Source: Escherichia coli
GTDB lineage: Bacteria > Pseudomonadota > Gammaproteobacteria > Enterobacterales > Enterobacteriaceae
Length of the DNA: 64,000 nt
Strand: one strand, 5' to 3'
NCBI RefSeq assembly: GCF_017348835.2
Contig: NZ_CP071375.1
The stretch's first letter is position 1; the number at the start of each line of letters is the position of its first letter. Made by a program: the position numbers and the translations under genes. The notes below the pieces were generated by a model. The model was not told the origin of the DNA and did not search any database. It saw only the letters and a list, made by a program, of their open reading frames with translations. Positions 2,436 through 46,376 of the stretch are shown here, piece after piece.

Positions 2436-2572
2436 AACATTTTTCCGCTTCGCTACCTCGCCCCTCACTCTTTCCAATAATGTTGCACAAGATACTGTGA
2501 CTCTCTTCAAGCCGTCAGCAAGCTGATAATGTTATTTATATTTTATTGTTTATTTCATGCAGCCATTACACG

Positions 2573-2929
2573 ATGAACGCTTATGAACTCCAGGCACTCC
2601 GCCATATTTTTGCCATGACTATTGAAGAATGCGCGACCTGGATTGCCCAGACCGGTGACAGTGAAAGCTGGCGTCAATGGGAAAATGGCAAGTGTGCCAT
2701 TCCTGATTGTGTAGTCGAGCAACTGTTGGCTATGCGTCAGCAAAGAAAAAAACATCTTCATGCCATCATAGAGAAAATAAATAACCGCATCGGCAACAAC
2801 ACCATGCGTTTTTTCCCCGACTTAACCGCATTTCAACGAGTCTACCCTGATGGCAATTTTATTGACTGGAAGATCTATCAATCGGTAGCCGCTGAATTAT
2901 ATGCACACGATCTGGAGCGGCTTTGTTAA
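2573..2929 (+). CDS. ydiL: DUF1870 small protein, putative HTH regulator
   Basis: ORF track 2546..2929; annotated-length start taken at MNAYELQALRHIF (118 aa). Confidence 0.75.
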   Translation: MNAYELQALRHIFAMTIEECATWIAQTGDSESWRQWENGKCAIPDCVVEQLLAMRQQRKKHLHAIIEKINNRIGNNTMRFFPDLTAFQRVYPDGNFIDWKIYQSVAAELYAHDLERLC

Positions 2930-3028
2930 TTTTTCCACAGAAAGGAATTGTCGTTGTTACAACAATAATGAATGGATACTGACACAACATCGCTACACTT
3001 TTTAAAGCACCTTTGCTAAGTAGAACCT

Positions 3029-4463: not shown

Positions 4464-5723
4464 GTGAAAATGTCTCAAAATAAGGCTTTCAGCACGCCAT
4501 TTATCCTGGCTGTTCTTTGTATTTACCTCAGTTATTTTCTACACGGCATTAGTGTTATTACGCTTGCCCAAAATATGTCATCTCTGGCGGAAAAGTTTTC
4601 CACTGACAACGCGGGCATTGCCTACTTAATTTCCGGTATCGGTTTGGGGCGATTGATCAGTATTTTATTCTTCGGTGTGATCTCCGATAAGTTTGGTCGT
4701 CGGGCGGTGATATTAATGGCAGTAATAATGTATCTGCTATTCTTCTTTGGTATTCCCGCTTGCCCGAATTTAACTCTCGCCTACGGTCTGGCAGTGTGCG
4801 TAGGTATCGCTAACTCAGCGCTGGATACGGGTGGCTACCCCGCGCTCATGGAATGCTTTCCGAAAGCCTCTGGTTCGGCGGTCATACTGGTTAAAGCGAT
4901 GGCGTCATTCGGGCAAATGTTCTACCCAATGCTGGTGAGCTATATGTTGCTCAATAATATCTGGTACGGCTATGGGCTGATTATTCCGGGTATTCTGTTT
5001 GTACTGATCACGCTGATGCTGTTGAAAAGCAAATTCCCCAGCCAGTTGGTGGACGCCAGCGTAGCTAATGAATTACCGCAAATGAACAGCAAACCGTTAG
5101 TCTGGCTGGAAGGTGTTTCATCGGTACTGTTCGGTGTAGCCGCATTCTCGACCTTTTATGTGATTGTGGTGTGGATGCCCAAATATGCGATGGCTTTTGC
5201 TGGTATGTCAGAAGCTGAGGCATTAAAAACCATCTCTTATTACAGTATGGGCTCGTTGGTCTGTGTCTTTATTTTTGCCGCACTACTGAAAAAAATGGTC
5301 CGGCCCATCTGGGCTAATGTATTTAACTCTGCACTGGCAACAATAACAGCAGCCATTATCTACCTGTACCCTTCTCCACTGGTGTGTAATGCCGGCGCCT
5401 TTGTTATCGGTTTCTCAGCAGCTGGCGGCATTTTACAGCTCGGTGTTTCGGTCATGTCAGAGTTTTTCCCCAAAAGCAAAGCCAAAGTCACCAGTATTTA
5501 TATGATGATGGGTGGACTGGCTAACTTTGTTATTCCGCTGATTACCGGTTATCTGTCGAACATCGGCCTGCAATATATCATCGTTCTCGATTTTACATTC
5601 GCGCTTGTGGCCCTGATTACCGCAATTATTGTTTTCATCCGCTATTACCGCGTCTTCATTATTCCTGAGAATGATGTGCGGTTTGGCGAACGCAATTTTA
5701 ACACCCCAGTTAAGCACAATTAA
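4464..5723 (+). CDS. ydiN: MFS transporter, paralog of ydiM
   Basis: 419-aa ORF sharing motifs with YdiM (SDKFGRR, DTGGYPALMECFP, IGFSAAGG). Confidence 0.85.
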   Translation: MKMSQNKAFSTPFILAVLCIYLSYFLHGISVITLAQNMSSLAEKFSTDNAGIAYLISGIGLGRLISILFFGVISDKFGRRAVILMAVIMYLLFFFGIPACPNLTLAYGLAVCVGIANSALDTGGYPALMECFPKASGSAVILVKAMASFGQMFYPMLVSYMLLNNIWYGYGLIIPGILFVLITLMLLKSKFPSQLVDASVANELPQMNSKPLVWLEGVSSVLFGVAAFSTFYVIVVWMPKYAMAFAGMSEAEALKTISYYSMGSLVCVFIFAALLKKMVRPIWANVFNSALATITAAIIYLYPSPLVCNAGAFVIGFSAAGGILQLGVSVMSEFFPKSKAKVTSIYMMMGGLANFVIPLITGYLSNIGLQYIIVLDFTFALVALITAIIVFIRYYRVFIIPENDVRFGERNFNTPVKHN

Positions 5724-5747
5724 GCATAGAGGTTAAAGGAGTTAATT

Positions 5748-13356: not shown

Positions 13357-14646
13357 ATGTCGGATGACAAATTTGATGCCATTGTGGTCGGTGCGGGCGT
13401 TGCTGGTAGCGTTGCCGCACTGGTCATGGCGCGAGCCGGGCTGGATGTCCTGGTGATAGAACGCGGCGACAGTGCCGGATGTAAAAACATGACCGGCGGG
13501 CGTCTTTATGCCCACACACTTGAAGCGATTATTCCAGGCTTTGCAGCATCAGCGCCGGTAGAACGCAAGGTCACACGCGAGAAAATCTCCTTCTTAACCG
13601 AAGAGAGCGCCGTTACCCTCGATTTTCACCGCGAGCAACCAGATGTTCCACAACACGCATCTTATACCGTATTGCGTAATCGTCTGGACCCGTGGTTGAT
13701 TGAACAAGCCGAGCAGGCGGGCACGCAGTTTATCCCGGGAGTTCGCGTCGATGCGCTGGTTCGTGAAGGAAACAAGGTCACTGGCGTCCAGGCTGGGGAT
13801 GATATTCTCGAAGCGAATGTGGTGATTCTGGCTGATGGCGTTAACTCGATGCTTGGCCGTTCGCTGGGAATGGTTCCCGCTTCCGATCCGCATCATTACG
13901 CTGTTGGTGTTAAAGAGGTTATTGGCCTGACACCAGAACAGATCAACGATCGCTTTAATATTACGGGCGAGGAAGGTGCCGCCTGGCTGTTTGCCGGTTC
14001 CCCTTCTGACGGCCTGATGGGTGGCGGATTCCTCTATACCAATAAGGATTCCATATCGTTGGGGCTGGTTTGTGGATTGGGTGATATCGCCCATGCGCAA
14101 AAAAGCGTGCCGCAAATGCTGGAAGATTTTAAACAACACCCCGCCATTCGCCCGCTGATTAGCGGCGGTAAACTGCTTGAATATTCCGCGCATATGGTGC
14201 CGGAAGGCGGTCTGGCAATGGTGCCGCAGCTGGTTAACGAGGGCGTGATGATCGTTGGTGACGCCGCAGGCTTCTGCCTGAATTTGGGTTTTACGGTCCG
14301 CGGCATGGATTTAGCCATTGCATCGGCTCAGGCTGCCGCCACAACGGTGATCGCCGCCAAAGAACGCGCGGATTTCTCCGCCAGCAGTCTTGCGCAATAC
14401 AAACGTGAGCTGGAACAAAGTTGTGTTATGCGCGATATGCAGCATTTTCGCAAGATCCCGGCGCTGATGGAAAACCCGCGCCTGTTTAGTCAGTATCCGC
14501 GCATGGTCGCCGACATCATGAACGAGATGTTCACCATTGACGGCAAACCAAACCAGCCGGTACGAAAAATGATCATGGGACATGCGAAGAAAATTGGGCT
14601 GATCAACTTGCTGAAAGATGGCATTAAGGGAGCAACCGCGCTATGA
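13357..14646 (+). CDS. ydiS: FAD-dependent ETF-quinone oxidoreductase homolog (FixC-like)
   Basis: 429-aa ORF with N-terminal FAD fold motif VVGAGVAGS. Confidence 0.9.
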   Translation: MSDDKFDAIVVGAGVAGSVAALVMARAGLDVLVIERGDSAGCKNMTGGRLYAHTLEAIIPGFAASAPVERKVTREKISFLTEESAVTLDFHREQPDVPQHASYTVLRNRLDPWLIEQAEQAGTQFIPGVRVDALVREGNKVTGVQAGDDILEANVVILADGVNSMLGRSLGMVPASDPHHYAVGVKEVIGLTPEQINDRFNITGEEGAAWLFAGSPSDGLMGGGFLYTNKDSISLGLVCGLGDIAHAQKSVPQMLEDFKQHPAIRPLISGGKLLEYSAHMVPEGGLAMVPQLVNEGVMIVGDAAGFCLNLGFTVRGMDLAIASAQAAATTVIAAKERADFSASSLAQYKRELEQSCVMRDMQHFRKIPALMENPRLFSQYPRMVADIMNEMFTIDGKPNQPVRKMIMGHAKKIGLINLLKDGIKGATAL

Positions 14647-14936
14647 GCCAGAACGCTACGGTTAACGTCGACATCAAATTAGGCGTCAATAAATTCCATG
14701 TTGATGAGGGCCACCCGCATATCATTTTGGCGGCAAATCCCGATATCAATGAATTCCGTAAATTAATGAAAGCCTGCCCTGCCGGACTTTATAAGCAGGA
14801 TGACGCCGGCAACATTCATTTTGATTCTGCCGGTTGTCTGGAGTGCGGCACCTGTCGGGTGCTGTGCGGTAACACTATTCTCGAACAGTGGCAATATCCC
14901 GCAGGCACCTTCGGTATTGATTTTCGCTACGGCTAA
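14643..14936 (+). CDS. ydiT: Ferredoxin-like protein (FixX-like)
   Basis: 97-aa ORF with Cys cluster CLECGTCRVLC; 4-bp overlap with the ydiS stop. Confidence 0.9.
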   Translation: MSQNATVNVDIKLGVNKFHVDEGHPHIILAANPDINEFRKLMKACPAGLYKQDDAGNIHFDSAGCLECGTCRVLCGNTILEQWQYPAGTFGIDFRYG

Positions 14937-14989
14937 TCATGCATCCCACAGGCCCGCATCTCGGGCCTGATGTTCTGTTTCGAGAGTCC

Positions 14990-16638
14990 AAAATGAAAGT
15001 GACATTAACGTTTAACGAACAACGTCGTGCGGCGTATCGTCAGCAAGGGCTATGGGGCGATGCTTCGCTGGCCGATTACTGGCAGCAGACCGCTCGTGCG
15101 ATGCCAGACAAAATTGCCGTGGTCGATAATCATGGAGCATCGTACACCTATAGCGCGCTCGATCACGCCGCGAGCTGTCTGGCAAACTGGATGTTAGCGA
15201 AGGGTATTGAATCAGGCGATCGCATCGCATTTCAACTGCCAGGCTGGTGTGAATTTACCGTTATCTATCTTGCCTGCCTGAAAATCGGTGCGGTTTCCGT
15301 ACCGCTGTTGCCTTCCTGGCGGGAAGCAGAACTGGTATGGGTGCTCAATAAGTGTCAGGCAAAATGTTCTTTGCACCGACGTTGTTTAAACAAACGCGTC
15401 CGGTAGATTTAATCCTGCCGCTGCAAAATCAGCTTCCACAACTTCAACAAATTGTCGGCGTGGACAAACTGGCTCCCGCCACCTCTTCCCTCTCATTAAG
15501 TCAGATTATCGCCGACAATACCCCACTGACCACGGCGATAACGACCCACGGCGATGAATTAGATGCGGTGCTGTTTACCTCCGGAACCGAGGGTCTGCCA
15601 AAGGGCGTGATGCTTACGCATAACAATATTCTCGCCAGTGAGCGGGCTTATTGCGCGCGGCTGAATCTGACCTGGCAGGATGTCTTTATGATGCCTGCGC
15701 CACTCGGCCACGCAACGGGCTTTCTGCATGGCGTAACGGCACCATTTTTGATTGGTGCTCGCAGCGTGTTGTTAGATATTTTCACTCCTGATGCGTGTCT
15801 CGCGCTGCTTGAGCAGCAGCGTTGCACCTGTATGCTCGGCGCAACGCCGTTTGTCTATGATCTTTTGAATTTAGTAGAGAAACAACCCGCAGACCTTTCA
15901 GCGCTGCGCTTCTTTCTTTGCGGCGGTACCACAATCCCCAAAAAAGTGGCGCGTGAATGCCAGCAGCGCGGCATTAAATTATTAAGTGTTTATGGTTCCA
16001 CAGAAAGTTCGCCGCATGCGGTGGTGAATCTCGATGATCCTTTGTCGCGCTTTATGCACACCGATGGTTACGCTGCCGCAGGTGTAGAGATTAAAGTGGT
16101 CGATGACGCACGCAAGACCTTACCGCCAGGTTGCGAAGGTGAAGAAGCCTCGCGTGGCCCCAATGTGTTTATGGGGTATTTTGATGAACCTGAATTAACC
16201 GCCCGTGCCCTGGATGAAGAAGGCTGGTATTACAGCGGCGATCTCTGCCGCATGGATGAGGCTGGCTATATAAAAATTACCGGACGCAAAAAAGATATTA
16301 TTGTCCGCGGCGGCGAAAATATTAGCAGCCGTGAAGTGGAAGATATTTTATTGCAGCATCCTAAAATTCACGATGCCTGTGTGGTTGCAATGCCCGATGA
16401 ACGTTTAGGTGAACGATCATGCGCTTATGTCGTGCTGAAAGCGCCGCATCATTCATTATCGCTGGAAGAGGTGGTGGCTTTTTTTAGCCGTAAACGGGTC
16501 GCAAAATATAAATATCCTGAACATATCGTGGTAATCGAAAAACTACCGCGCACTGCCTCAGGTAAAATACAAAAGTTTTTGTTAAGGAAAGATATTATGC
16601 GGCGATTAACTCAGGATGTCTGTGAAGAGATTGAATAA
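14990..16638 (+). pseudogene. fadK: Short-chain acyl-CoA synthetase fadK, disrupted by a -1 frameshift
   Basis: N-terminal frame (track 14939..15406) and C-terminal frame (track 15352..16638) are both FadK sequence but in different frames; they join at ..NKCQAK / MFFAPTLFKQ across the run GGCAAAATGTTC at 15359-15370. Confidence 0.7.
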
Positions 16639-16663: not shown

Positions 16664-16700
16664 CCCGGCGACAAAACGCCGCCGGGTATTTATTTTATTT
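16664..16700 (+). terminator. Putative fadK terminator in the fadK/ppsA convergent gap
   Basis: Hairpin CCCGGCG-acaaaa-CGCCGGG followed by TATTTATTTTATTT. Confidence 0.5.
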
Positions 16701-19073
16701 CTTCAGTTCAGCCAGGCTTAACCAGGTTTGCACCACGGTGTCCGGATTCAGAGACAGGCTATCGATCCCCTCTTCCATCAACCATGCGGCAAAGTCTTCG
16801 TGGTCGGACGGACCCTGACCGCAAATCCCGACATATTTGCCCTGTTTCTTCGCGGCACGGATAGCCATCGACAGCAATGCTTTCACCGCATCGTTGCGCT
16901 CATCGAACAATTCAGACACCACGCCGGAGTCACGATCCAGACCGAGCGCTAGCTGCGTCATGTCGTTTGAGCCAATTGAGAAGCCGTCGAAATATTCGAG
17001 GAACTGCTCGGCCAGCAAGGCGTTGGACGGGATTTCACACATCATGATGATTTTCAGCCCGTTCTCACCACGCTTCAGCCCCTGACGCGCCAGTTCCTCA
17101 ACCACCGCTTTCGCCTGATCTACGGTACGCACGAACGGGATCATGATCTCAACGTTGGTCAGCCCCATGTCGTTGCGCACACGTTTCACTGCTTCACACT
17201 CCAGCGCGAAACAGTCGCGGAAGCTGTCGGAAACATAGCGTCCCGCGCCACGGAAGCCGAGCATCGGGTTCTCTTCATCTGGCTCATAACGCTCACCACC
17301 GACCAGGTTGGCATATTCGTTCGATTTAAAATCAGAGAGACGGACAATGACGCGCTTCGGATAAAACGCGGCACCCAGCGTCGCGATCCCTTCAGTCAGA
17401 CGACCAACGTAAAATTCACGCGGAGAATCAAAACCTTTCATCATCTCGCGGATTTCGTTTTGCAACTGCGGTTCCTGATCGTCAAACTCAAGCAGTGCGC
17501 GTGGGTGGACGCCAATCATACGGTTGATGATAAATTCCAGACGCGCAAGTCCCACGCCTTCGTTCGGCAGACAGGCGAAGTCGAAAGCTCGGTCCGGGTT
17601 ACCGACGTTCATCATCACTTTCAACGGCAGATCCGGCATCGTTTCTACGCTGGAGCTTTTCACGCTAAATTCCAGCAACTCCGCATAGACGTAACCGGTA
17701 TCACCTTCGGCACAAGAAACAGTGACGTTCTCACCGTCTTTCATCCGTTCTGTTGCATCACCACAGCCCACTACCGCCGGAATGCCCAGTTCACGAGCGA
17801 TGATCGCCGCGTGACAGGTACGACCGCCACGGTTGGTGACGATGGCAGATGCTTTCTTCATGATCGGTTCCCAGTCCGGGTCGGTCATGTCAGTGACCAG
17901 CACGTCACCAGGTTCGATGCGGTTCATTTCGCTGATATCATGGATGACTTTCACCGGACCCGCACCGATGCGATGACCGATAGCACGGCCTTCGGCGATA
18001 ATCTTACCCTGTGAATGCAGCGTATAACGCTCCATGACCTGACCGCGTGAGCGCACGGTTTCCGGACGCGCCTGCACAATGAACAGTTTACCGGTGTGGC
18101 CATCTTTCGCCCACTCAATATCCATCGGGCGACCGTAGTGTTTCTCAATTTGTACGGCCTGTTTTGCCAGTTCCTGCACTTCTTCGTTGGTCAGCGAGAA
18201 GATGTCACGCTGTTCCTGCGGTACGTCTTCGATTTTAACCTGCTTGCCGTGCTCCTGGGTCGGCGCGTAAACCATGCGGATTTTTTTCGACCCCATGGTG
18301 CGGCGCACGATAGCCGGGCGATTCGCCGCCAGTGTCGGTTTATGCACGTAAAACTCATCCGGGTTAACCGCACCCTGCACGACCATCTCACCAAGGCCCC
18401 ATGCGGATGTGATAAACACCACCTGGTCAAAGCCGGATTCGGTATCAATGGAGAACATCACGCCAGATGATGCGAGGTCAGAGCGCACCATCCGTTGAAC
18501 ACCGGCGGAGAGCGCCACACCACGGTGATCGTAACCCTGGTGCACACGATAAGAGATGGCGCGATCGTTAAACAGAGAAGCAAATACATGTTTCACTGCC
18601 ACGAGAACGGCGTCAAAACCCTGAACGTTGAGGAAGGTTTCCTGCTGACCGGCAAAAGAAGCGTCCGGCATATCTTCTGCGGTGGCGGAGGAGCGCACCG
18701 CAAAAGAGGCATTTTCGTCATCAGCGGAAAGCTGTGCATAGGCTTCTCGGATGGCGTTTTCCAGCTCAGGCTGGAAGGGAGTGTCGATAATCCACTGGCG
18801 GATTTGCGCGCCCGCTTTCGCAAGCTGAGTAACATCGTCAATATCCGTTTTATCCAGCAGTTCATAAATGCGCTGGTTTACGCCGCTTTGGTCCAGAAAC
18901 TGGTTAAACGCGTCGGCGGTTGTGGCGAAACCATTCGGAACGGAAACACCCATTCCGGAAAGGTTAGTAATCATTTCACCCAGGGAGGCATTTTTGCCCC
19001 CAACCCTGTCTACATCATTCATGCCGAGTTGGTTATACCAAAGCACCAGCGGTGACGAGCCATTGTTGGACAT
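16695..19073 (-). CDS. ppsA: Phosphoenolpyruvate synthase
   Basis: 792-aa ORF; sequence matches PpsA. Confidence 0.95.
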
Positions 19074-45162: not shown

Positions 45163-45489
45163 ATGACTAAAAATACTCGTTTTTCCCCCGAAGTCCGTCA
45201 GCGGGCGATTCGTATGGTTCTGGAAAGTCAGGATGAATATGACTCACAATGGGCGACAATTTGTTCCATTGCTCCAAAGATTGGCTGTACGCCGGAGACT
45301 CTGCGTGTCTGGGTTCGCCAGCATGAGCGGGATACCGGGGGCGGTGATGGCGGGCTCACCACCGCTGAACGTCAGCGTCTGAAAGAGCTGGAACGTGAAA
45401 ATCGTGAACTGCGCCGCAGTAACGATATCCTTCGCCAGGCTTCCGCTTATTTTGCGAAGGCGGAGTTCGACCGCCTCTGGAAAAAATGA
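45163..45489 (+). CDS. IS3-family transposase OrfA (HTH DNA-binding part)
   Basis: 108-aa [19 protein letters not shown]... with leucine-zipper-like C-terminus; recalled as IS629-type OrfA. Confidence 0.85.
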
Positions 45490-46376
45490 TGCCACTGCTG
45501 GATAAGCTGCGTGAGCAGTACGGGGTCGGACCGCTATGCAGCGAACTGCATATTGCCCCGTCAACGTATTACCATTGTCAGCAACAGCGACATCATCCGG
45601 ATAAACGCAGTGCCCGTGCGCAGCACGATGACTGGCTGAAGAAAGAGATACAGCGCGTATACGATGAAAATCACCAGGTATACGGTGTGCGTAAAGTCTG
45701 GCGTCAGTTGTTACGGGAAGGTATCAGAGTGGCCAGATGCACTGTGGCACGTCTCATGGCAGTTATGGGACTTGCCGGTGTTCTCCGGGGTAAAAAGGTC
45801 CGCACTACCGTCAGCCGGAAAGCCGTTGCCGCATGCGACCGCGTAAACCGTCAGTTCGTGGCAGAACGTCCAGACCAGTTGTGGGTGGCTGATTTTACCT
45901 GGGTAAGCACATGGCAGGGCTTCGTTTATGTGGCGTTCATCATTGATGTGTTCGCCGGATACATCGTGGGATGGCAGGTCTCATCATCCATGGAAACAAC
46001 ATTCGTGCTGGATGCACTGGAGCAGGCGTTGTGGGCCCGTCGGCCGTCCGGCACAATCCATCACAGTGATAAAGGTTCTCAGTATGTATCGCTGGCCTAC
46101 ACGCAGCGGCTTAAGGAAGCCGGATTACTGGCATCAACAGGGAGTACTGGCGACTCGTATGACAACGCGATGGCGGAGAGCATCAATGGTCTTTACAAAG
46201 CGGAGGTAATACACCGTAAGAGCTGGAAAAACCGGACAGAAGTGGAACTGGCCACACTCACGTGGGTGGACTGGTATAACAATCGACGATTGCTGGAAAG
46301 GCTGGGCCATACTCCCCCGGCAGAAGCAGAAAAAGCTTATTATGCTTCCATCGGAAACGATGATCTGGCAGCCTGA
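45486..46376 (+). CDS. IS3-family transposase OrfB (DDE catalytic part)
   Basis: 296-aa frame in -1 relative to orfA; integrase-core motifs; A6 run at 45481-45486 is a candidate slippery site. Confidence 0.85.

Follow-up and report, generated by a model that had tools for sequence, protein, structure and literature searches.

In the window analysed here (the whole stretch of 64,000 nucleotides of Escherichia coli DNA), the gene for the acyl-CoA synthetase FadK lies in two different reading frames, which raises the question of whether the strain carries a true pseudogene, a gene switched on and off by phase variation, or an intact gene misread in a homopolymer, the three possibilities that a preliminary description had put forward. 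Comparison with public genomes, assemblies and read sets argues, with a probability that we put at about 0.93, that the allele is a genuine, inherited, lineage-specific fadK pseudogene that resulted from a one-nucleotide deletion in a small, mostly pig-associated clade of E. coli.

The break lies in a run of four adenines (A4; 15361-15364, + strand), with C at 15360 and TG at 15365-15366; the window reads directly as GGCAAAATG, and the triplets around the break are AAT AAG TGT CAG GCA AAA TGT TCT TTG. In the six-frame list of open reading frames, one ORF on the + strand (14939..15406, 155 aa) ends in NKCQAK followed by CSLHRRCLNKRVR and a stop, and a second, also on the + strand (15352..16638, 428 aa), begins with MSGK and continues with MFFAPTLFKQ, so that the two halves, their frames and the four adenines are exactly as first described. 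The coordinates of the 5' ORF are 2 mod 3 and those of the 3' ORF are 1 mod 3, placing the 3' part in the -1 frame, as expected from the loss of one base. According to RefSeq/PGAP, fadK starts at the ATG at 14993 (giving a 548-aa protein) rather than at 14939, and the GTG at 15352 is a mechanical ORF start only, native codon 125 (Met) being the ATG at 15364-15366.

The whole pseudogene, a medium/short-chain fatty-acid--CoA ligase delimited by the annotation of strain PE164 and by a family match after repair (see below), spans 14993..16638 (+). Its 5' fragment (14993..15406, +; 137 aa) consists of codons 1-124, ending in NKCQAK, and 13 out-of-frame codons encoding CSLHRRCLNKRVR, and is closed by a premature TAG at 15404-15406; its 3' fragment (15364..16638, +; 424 aa) consists of codons 125-548 in the -1 frame and opens with an internal Met, with AGG 4 nt upstream. 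A single gap in the alignments to strains RM9872 and K-12 marks the A4 run (15361..15364, +) as the site of the one-nucleotide deletion, the ancestral state being five adenines (A5); the reference alleles of both strains read GGCAAAAATG. In the collinear annotation of PE164, fadK closes the ydiQRST-fadK cluster, and the convergent ppsA (16695..19073, - strand) comes next. K-12 has the identical order: its fadK (ydiD, b1701), set within ydiQ-ydiR-ydiS-ydiT-fadK / ppsA, is the counterpart of the gene in the window, which differs from it in lacking one A of the A5 at codons 123-125, with the ORF broken after codon 124.

Insertion of one A in silico restores an uninterrupted fadK ORF of 1647 nt with a 548-aa product. 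The repaired protein shares 542 of 548 residues with K-12 FadK (6 differences) and has 3 differences from the FadK of O145:H28 strain RM9872, and it scores 1087.7 bits over profile positions 1-547 of 548 against NF004758, the NCBIfam equivalog for FadK (medium-chain fatty-acid--CoA ligase), whose curated cut-off of 736 bits is exceeded solely after the A has been added. This match over the full length indicates one lesion in a gene that is intact in all other respects and not a chance juxtaposition of ORFs; the genomic position, 3' of ydiQRST and convergent with ppsA, is also that of FadK. Taken separately, the 137-aa product reaches 234 bits, under the cut-off, and covers profile positions 1-127 only, while the 424-aa product spans positions 125-547. 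In precomputed Pfam matches, both fragments have PF00501 (AMP-binding N-domain) and the 424-aa fragment alone has PF13193; together these are the domains of the ANL (adenylate-forming) superfamily, and the solved structures nearest to FadK are those of aryl-/acyl-adenylating enzymes (e.g. 5wm2, E = 1e-79). The nucleotide-binding motif TSGTEGLPKG occupies residues 197-206 of the repaired protein and is therefore on the 3' fragment; the 5' fragment, which retains the AMP-binding domain only up to about residue 124, has neither this motif nor the C-terminal domain PF13193. Judged from this domain content, the acyl-CoA synthetase activity of FadK is predicted to be lost.

The same lesion is present in a known strain. 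PE164, an O108:H9 hybrid aEPEC/ExPEC of phylogroup E from a diarrhoeic piglet in Nanjing, was sequenced on the Illumina NovaSeq platform and assembled with Unicycler (PMC12233904). It is collinear with the window over 64,000 bases, with 7 substitutions and 0 indels, and its fadK (LZG51_RS13540), at the same coordinates, has the same A4 at the same position and is a PGAP pseudogene with the label 'frameshifted'; the lesion is thus already known from the RefSeq annotation of a sister strain. Relative to PE164, the window adds Ala191Asp within the pseudogene (C>A at 15563, +) and six other SNPs, and these extra SNPs identify it as a member of a sister sub-lineage rather than as the PE164 record itself. 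Further public assemblies share three of the window's variants (12978, 15563 and 25965). The non-synonymous change at 15563 is derived and found in the window's sub-lineage only: the haplotype table has A in the window and in haplotypes L005, L011, L012, L014 and L017, and C in PE164, L008, L009, all A5 haplotypes and the outgroup. We considered Ala191Asp as a change of a conserved motif residue and dropped the idea, the alignments to solved homologues being ambiguous there. All seven differences between the two genomes are A/T in the window and G/C in PE164; a mutator or damage signature behind this bias was also considered and dropped, since of the three sites that were polarised one (25965) is derived in PE164, and the pattern is partly coincidence.

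Beyond these two genomes, the exact 137-aa 5' product, including its out-of-frame tail, occurs on at least 25 public contigs in a public protein collection, where the 3' product, predicted by public gene callers at 424 aa, is found in the Asp191 version of the window on 7 contigs and in the Ala191 version of PE164 on 2. At the nucleotide level, A4 is present in GCA_019365225.1 (identical to the window over 21,275 of 21,275 bases), in Logan SRR15731741 (14,507 of 14,507 bases), in Logan ERR14374684, SRR27418558 and SRR27418881 (each 100% identical to the window, over 2.7-5.8 kb), and in GCA_032490375.1 and ERR10376664, which are PE164-like with 2-3 substitutions. In all, at least nine contigs of different accessions combine A4 with the window/PE164 haplotype and are free of further indels; the independence of these data sets was judged by their differing accession prefixes (ERR or SRR runs, separate GenBank assemblies).

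The deletion also has a perfectly linked marker, a SNP in ydiS (13650, +), which is A in every A4 haplotype of the lineage where the position is covered (9 A4 haplotypes) and G in 5 of 5 A5 haplotypes (L022-L025 and RM9872). Among these 9 A4 and 5 A5 haplotypes, the table of variable sites contains no homoplasy or reversion between A4 and 13650A within the clade. The nearest intact (A5) haplotypes found are just 3 substitutions from PE164 in 7.6 kb, and L022-L025 encode an intact 548-aa FadK of the same type, a protein found in 116 public blocks of the collection. The distribution of these haplotypes indicates a single, recent deletion on an intact haplotype that is itself known, followed by division of the clade into two or more sub-lineages.

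These data bear directly on the concern that A4 is a homopolymer error of sequencing or assembly and that the strain is truly A5, with an intact fadK. Such errors do seem to occur at this site. CP044355.1 (4.64 Mb), whose haplotype is that of K-12 without a single substitution, has A5>A4 plus a second homopolymer deletion, A6>A5, at the window equivalent of ~16288 in fadK, and in a noisy metagenome contig, also of the K-12 haplotype, A4 comes with 20 gap openings over 6.4 kb. In each case A4 resembles a homopolymer error of long-read sequencing, suggesting that this A run is miscalled by some platforms, a probable artefact to which some technologies are prone. A contig of SRR15989561 has A4 alongside extra indels and may be either an error or a real deletion. 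The window shares with CP044355.1 and the metagenome contig the A5>A4 state at the same site, but those two assemblies have nearby homopolymer indels, whereas the window and its relatives have none and their allele follows the phylogeny. Over 27 kb, the window differs from RM9872 by three indels only, one of which is RM9872's own ydiO frameshift, and it is therefore not a noisy assembly (RM9872 is usable as an outgroup to ~27 kb only, a P2-like prophage being inserted between btuC and ihfA). The A4 contigs without other indels include the Illumina-sequenced PE164, and near-identical A5 sister haplotypes with the same local context lack the deletion and the linked 13650A. Neither a random nor a systematic miscall can explain an allele that is reproducible across data sets and tracks the phylogeny while a sister with identical local sequence reads A5, and we consider an error in the window extremely improbable. 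The caution expressed in the preliminary description was nonetheless reasonable, given CP044355.1 and the metagenome contig, and its alternative suggestion of a pseudogene agrees with the A4 of assemblies identical to the window, the annotation of PE164 and the linkage to the flanking SNP.

The frequency of the allele was determined in complete E. coli genomes, 5410 of 5426 of which contain fadK; the 5' part of the gene is nearly invariant across E. coli haplotypes. The allele probe was a 77-mer around the A run, placed so as to avoid the SNPs observed in the retrieved loci; its A5 and A6 versions were queried too. (A common SNP at 15337 makes a 76-mer probe score A4 plus the SNP the same as A5 with a gap, which the 77-mer avoids.) The exact A4 context was found in a single genome, PE164 (NZ_CP114128.1), of the 5374 complete genomes with a 77-mer match, and the exact A5 context in at least 3167; a further 2211 matches to the A5 query were less than 99% identical, and 17 of the 17 such matches listed span all 78 bases, as substitutions rather than indels would. 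The split is consequently rare, and is not the normal state of the gene in reference genomes. The A6 version was exact in 0 of 5378 complete genomes.

This distribution is also pertinent to the proposal that fadK is a phase-variable contingency locus, in which an A tract toggling between 4 and 5 would turn the gene off and on. The mutation does lie within a homopolymer, and A5>A4 has probably arisen independently in nature on at least one further background, that of Logan ERR2135218. This contig is clean, with 93 substitutions and no gap relative to the window, and the complete genomes closest to it (EC2001, A29, CT02 and TUM1881) are set apart essentially by one A; in EC2001 and A29 the run is A5. 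Homopolymeric contingency tracts are, however, usually at least 7 nt long, and the tract in fadK is merely 4-5 nt. It shows neither length variation, with A6 and A4 as scarce among complete genomes as given above, nor revertants, reversion and homoplasy both being absent within the clade; an intact FadK with Asp191, the allele of the window, is absent from a collection of ~15 billion proteins. Two or three independent A4 events across the E. coli data sets of the collection fit the ordinary mutation of a dispensable gene. We accordingly give almost no credence to phase variation at this locus.

If A4 is a real and stable deletion, the gene might still be partly functional, either through a -1 slip of tRNA-Lys on A_AAA (15361-15364), which would give some full-length FadK, or through reassembly of the 137-aa and 424-aa fragments. 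A slip of the P-site tRNA-Lys from AAA at 15362-15364 to AAA at 15361-15363 would put the native ATG in the A site and produce the junction ..QAK-MFF..; the junction peptide of such a slipped full-length FadK is QAKMFFAPTLFK. The RNA at 15366-15445 folds somewhat more stably than its shuffled versions (-18.5 kcal/mol, z = -2.59; 1 of 200 shuffles), with pairing from ~5 nt after the run, a stimulatory structure being expected 5-9 nt beyond a slip site, and the 3' ORF opens with an ATG whose upstream AGG is weakly Shine-Dalgarno-like; a 424-aa fragment may be made from it. The sequence itself, however, is not that of a programmed -1 frameshift. An X_XXY_YYZ heptamer is absent, the site being G_GCA_AAA, at which a P-site GCA would need to re-pair with GGC; the RNA downstream of the A run is the ancestral coding sequence of all A5 genomes, and hence unselected as a frameshift stimulator; and the two-frame arrangement is recent, rare and unconserved, with its one occurrence among the complete genomes searched. 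Moreover, Ala191Asp has since been fixed in the 3' part of the gene in the window's sub-lineage, and a close relative, F2_81, has lost the 5' part of fadK outright. We know of no split AMP-binding N-domains that reassemble, for instance after a cut at residue 124. Residual function by either route is thus very improbable, and any leak through slippage would probably be incidental and small.

The lineage-specific pseudogene is best accounted for by a simple course of events. An ancestor of the clade of the window and PE164 underwent a spontaneous A5>A4 change in the fadK coding sequence, most likely by replication slippage in the short homopolymer. The deletion shifts the frame after codon 124, and translation from 14993 ends 13 codons on, at the TAG at 15404-15406. 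The allele has been inherited clonally through the split of the clade, the sub-lineage of the window gaining one more amino-acid change in a gene that was by then dead. No downstream gene is expected to be affected, as fadK is the last gene before the convergent ppsA, and the fitness cost is presumed small because FadD covers fatty-acid activation; the loss of fadK should be nearly neutral. The activity of FadK is highest on C6-C8 acids (Morgan-Kiss & Cronan 2004, as cited in review PMC9329746). According to the same review, cells mutant in both fadD and fadK can use no fatty acid at all, and what FadK does physiologically has yet to be clarified (PMC9329746).

In keeping with a nearly neutral effect, other losses of fadK were found among the genomes compared. 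F2_81 (NZ_CP043542.1), a pig isolate from Australia, has the same rare ydiN allele and belongs to the same near-identical haplotype group; it has kept A5, and has a deletion of 1,901 bp (window 13430-15330) between ACTGGT microhomologies, which removes ydiT and fuses ydiS at codon ~22 in frame with fadK at codon ~113. A nonsense mutation, S168* (TCA>TAA), marks a STEC lineage (e.g. 2013C-3264), with 10 complete genomes and over 1000 contigs carrying it, and fadK products of Shigella flexneri are on record in truncated form. The ydiO frameshift of O145:H28 RM9872 lies in the same cluster. Like A4, the F2_81 deletion and S168* are losses of function in one dispensable gene; they differ from it in mechanism, by deletion between microhomologies and nonsense mutation, respectively, and in their independent origins.

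It is conceivable, though improbable, that selection, and not neutral decay, is removing the ydiS-ydiT-fadK module from this pig-associated lineage of phylogroup E: A4 and the F2_81 deletion are two independent losses of fadK in a single group of near-identical haplotypes. If so, activating short- and medium-chain fatty acids might carry a cost in the pig gut. In a weaker variant of this idea, the A4 allele may be leaky through tRNA-Lys slippage, keeping a trace of FadK.

For annotation, the locus is correctly described as one frameshifted fadK pseudogene, and neither as two genes nor as an error to be polished away. As some long-read assemblies are miscalled at this A run, a frameshift there should be accepted only with backing from phylogeny or from the reads. 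A4 together with 13650A provides a handy marker for the porcine clade that includes the O108:H9 strain PE164. More broadly, the allele is a further indication that natural E. coli can dispense with fadK, and with the anaerobic fatty-acid genes of the ydi cluster in general, and has lost them repeatedly; this repeated loss fits the question, still open in the literature, of what purpose FadK serves (PMC9329746).

The ydiQRST-fadK neighbourhood (the ydi cluster) carries fadK losses other than the four-A run (A4) of the window, where the ancestral state is five A's (A5). A nonsense mutation at codon 168 (S168*, TCA>TAA; window-equivalent 15494, and 2501..3004 of locus L018) is distinct from the A4 lesion and is fixed in an STEC-type lineage; it is present in 10 complete genomes, from isolates of cattle and human origin, and the public collection lists it in 1187 blocks. 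In F2_81 (L026, NZ_CP043542.1), a near-identical Australian pig isolate, the A5 run is retained in fadK and the lesion is a 1,901-bp deletion (corresponding to window 13430..15330) bounded by ACTGGT microhomologies. This deletion removes ydiT and joins the 5' end of ydiS, with the reading frame preserved, to approximately codon 113 of fadK, and the resulting 456-aa ydiS/fadK fusion (L026 21698..23068) is named "fadK" by the RefSeq annotation (PGAP), without a flag.

The A5>A4 change at the window-equivalent of 15361-15364 also appears in two assemblies of K-12 haplotype, CP044355.1 (L007) and JAIOUI010022228.1 (L006), which share an identical pair of fadK homopolymer deletions, the second being A6>A5 at window-equivalent ~16283-16288. 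One of the two has 0 substitutions relative to K-12 and the other has 20 gap openings; the run deletions in these assemblies are probably a systematic long-read miscall. Just 3' of the A-run, the fadK mRNA is predicted to fold more stably than its dinucleotide shuffles (window 15366..15445; -18.5 kcal/mol, z = -2.59, 1/200), and the folded segment is ancestral coding sequence.

The window and its collinear sister strain PE164, which has the same A4 run, differ at seven positions (12978, 15563, 25965, 45859, 47364, 51092 and 56406), and at all seven the window has A or T where PE164 has G or C. Three of the seven sites could be polarised; the window carries the derived base at two of them and PE164 at the third (25965), and because of this split the bias is at least partly coincidental. 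The difference at 45859 lies inside an IS3-family transposase (window ~45163..46376, between ydjO and cedA, placed from the collinear PE164 annotation), which is annotated in PE164 with a programmed frameshift and an "AL1L pseudoknot". Adjoining thrS is espL1 (35054..36952), a type III secretion effector gene, in keeping with the description of PE164 as having an aEPEC background.

A second gene, ydiN (4470..5736), encoding an MFS transporter, is 1267 nt long, which is not a multiple of three, and is flagged as "frameshifted" by PGAP in both PE164 and F2_81. Approximately 10 codons upstream of its stop, a C-run at 5704-5707 reads CCCC in the window versus CCC in the O145:H28 strain RM9872, and several substitutions between the two flank the run. 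Among complete genomes, the 86-nt 3' end of ydiN is common to PE164 and F2_81 only; the remaining complete genomes that match it are less than 95% identical. The window's ydiN appears to be an allele of this lineage with a diverged C-terminus, rather than a simple error.

RM9872, the A5 outgroup used for polarising, carries a P2-like prophage of ~33 kb between btuC and ihfA (L020/L021; window-equivalent ~27113-27214) that is absent from the window, and this insertion restricted its usefulness as an outgroup. Its acyl-CoA dehydrogenase gene ydiO (L020 9157..10307) is annotated as frameshifted and lacks one nucleotide that is present in the window (window-equivalent ~10018); it adds another ydi-cluster gene in decay, in a lineage other than that of the window.
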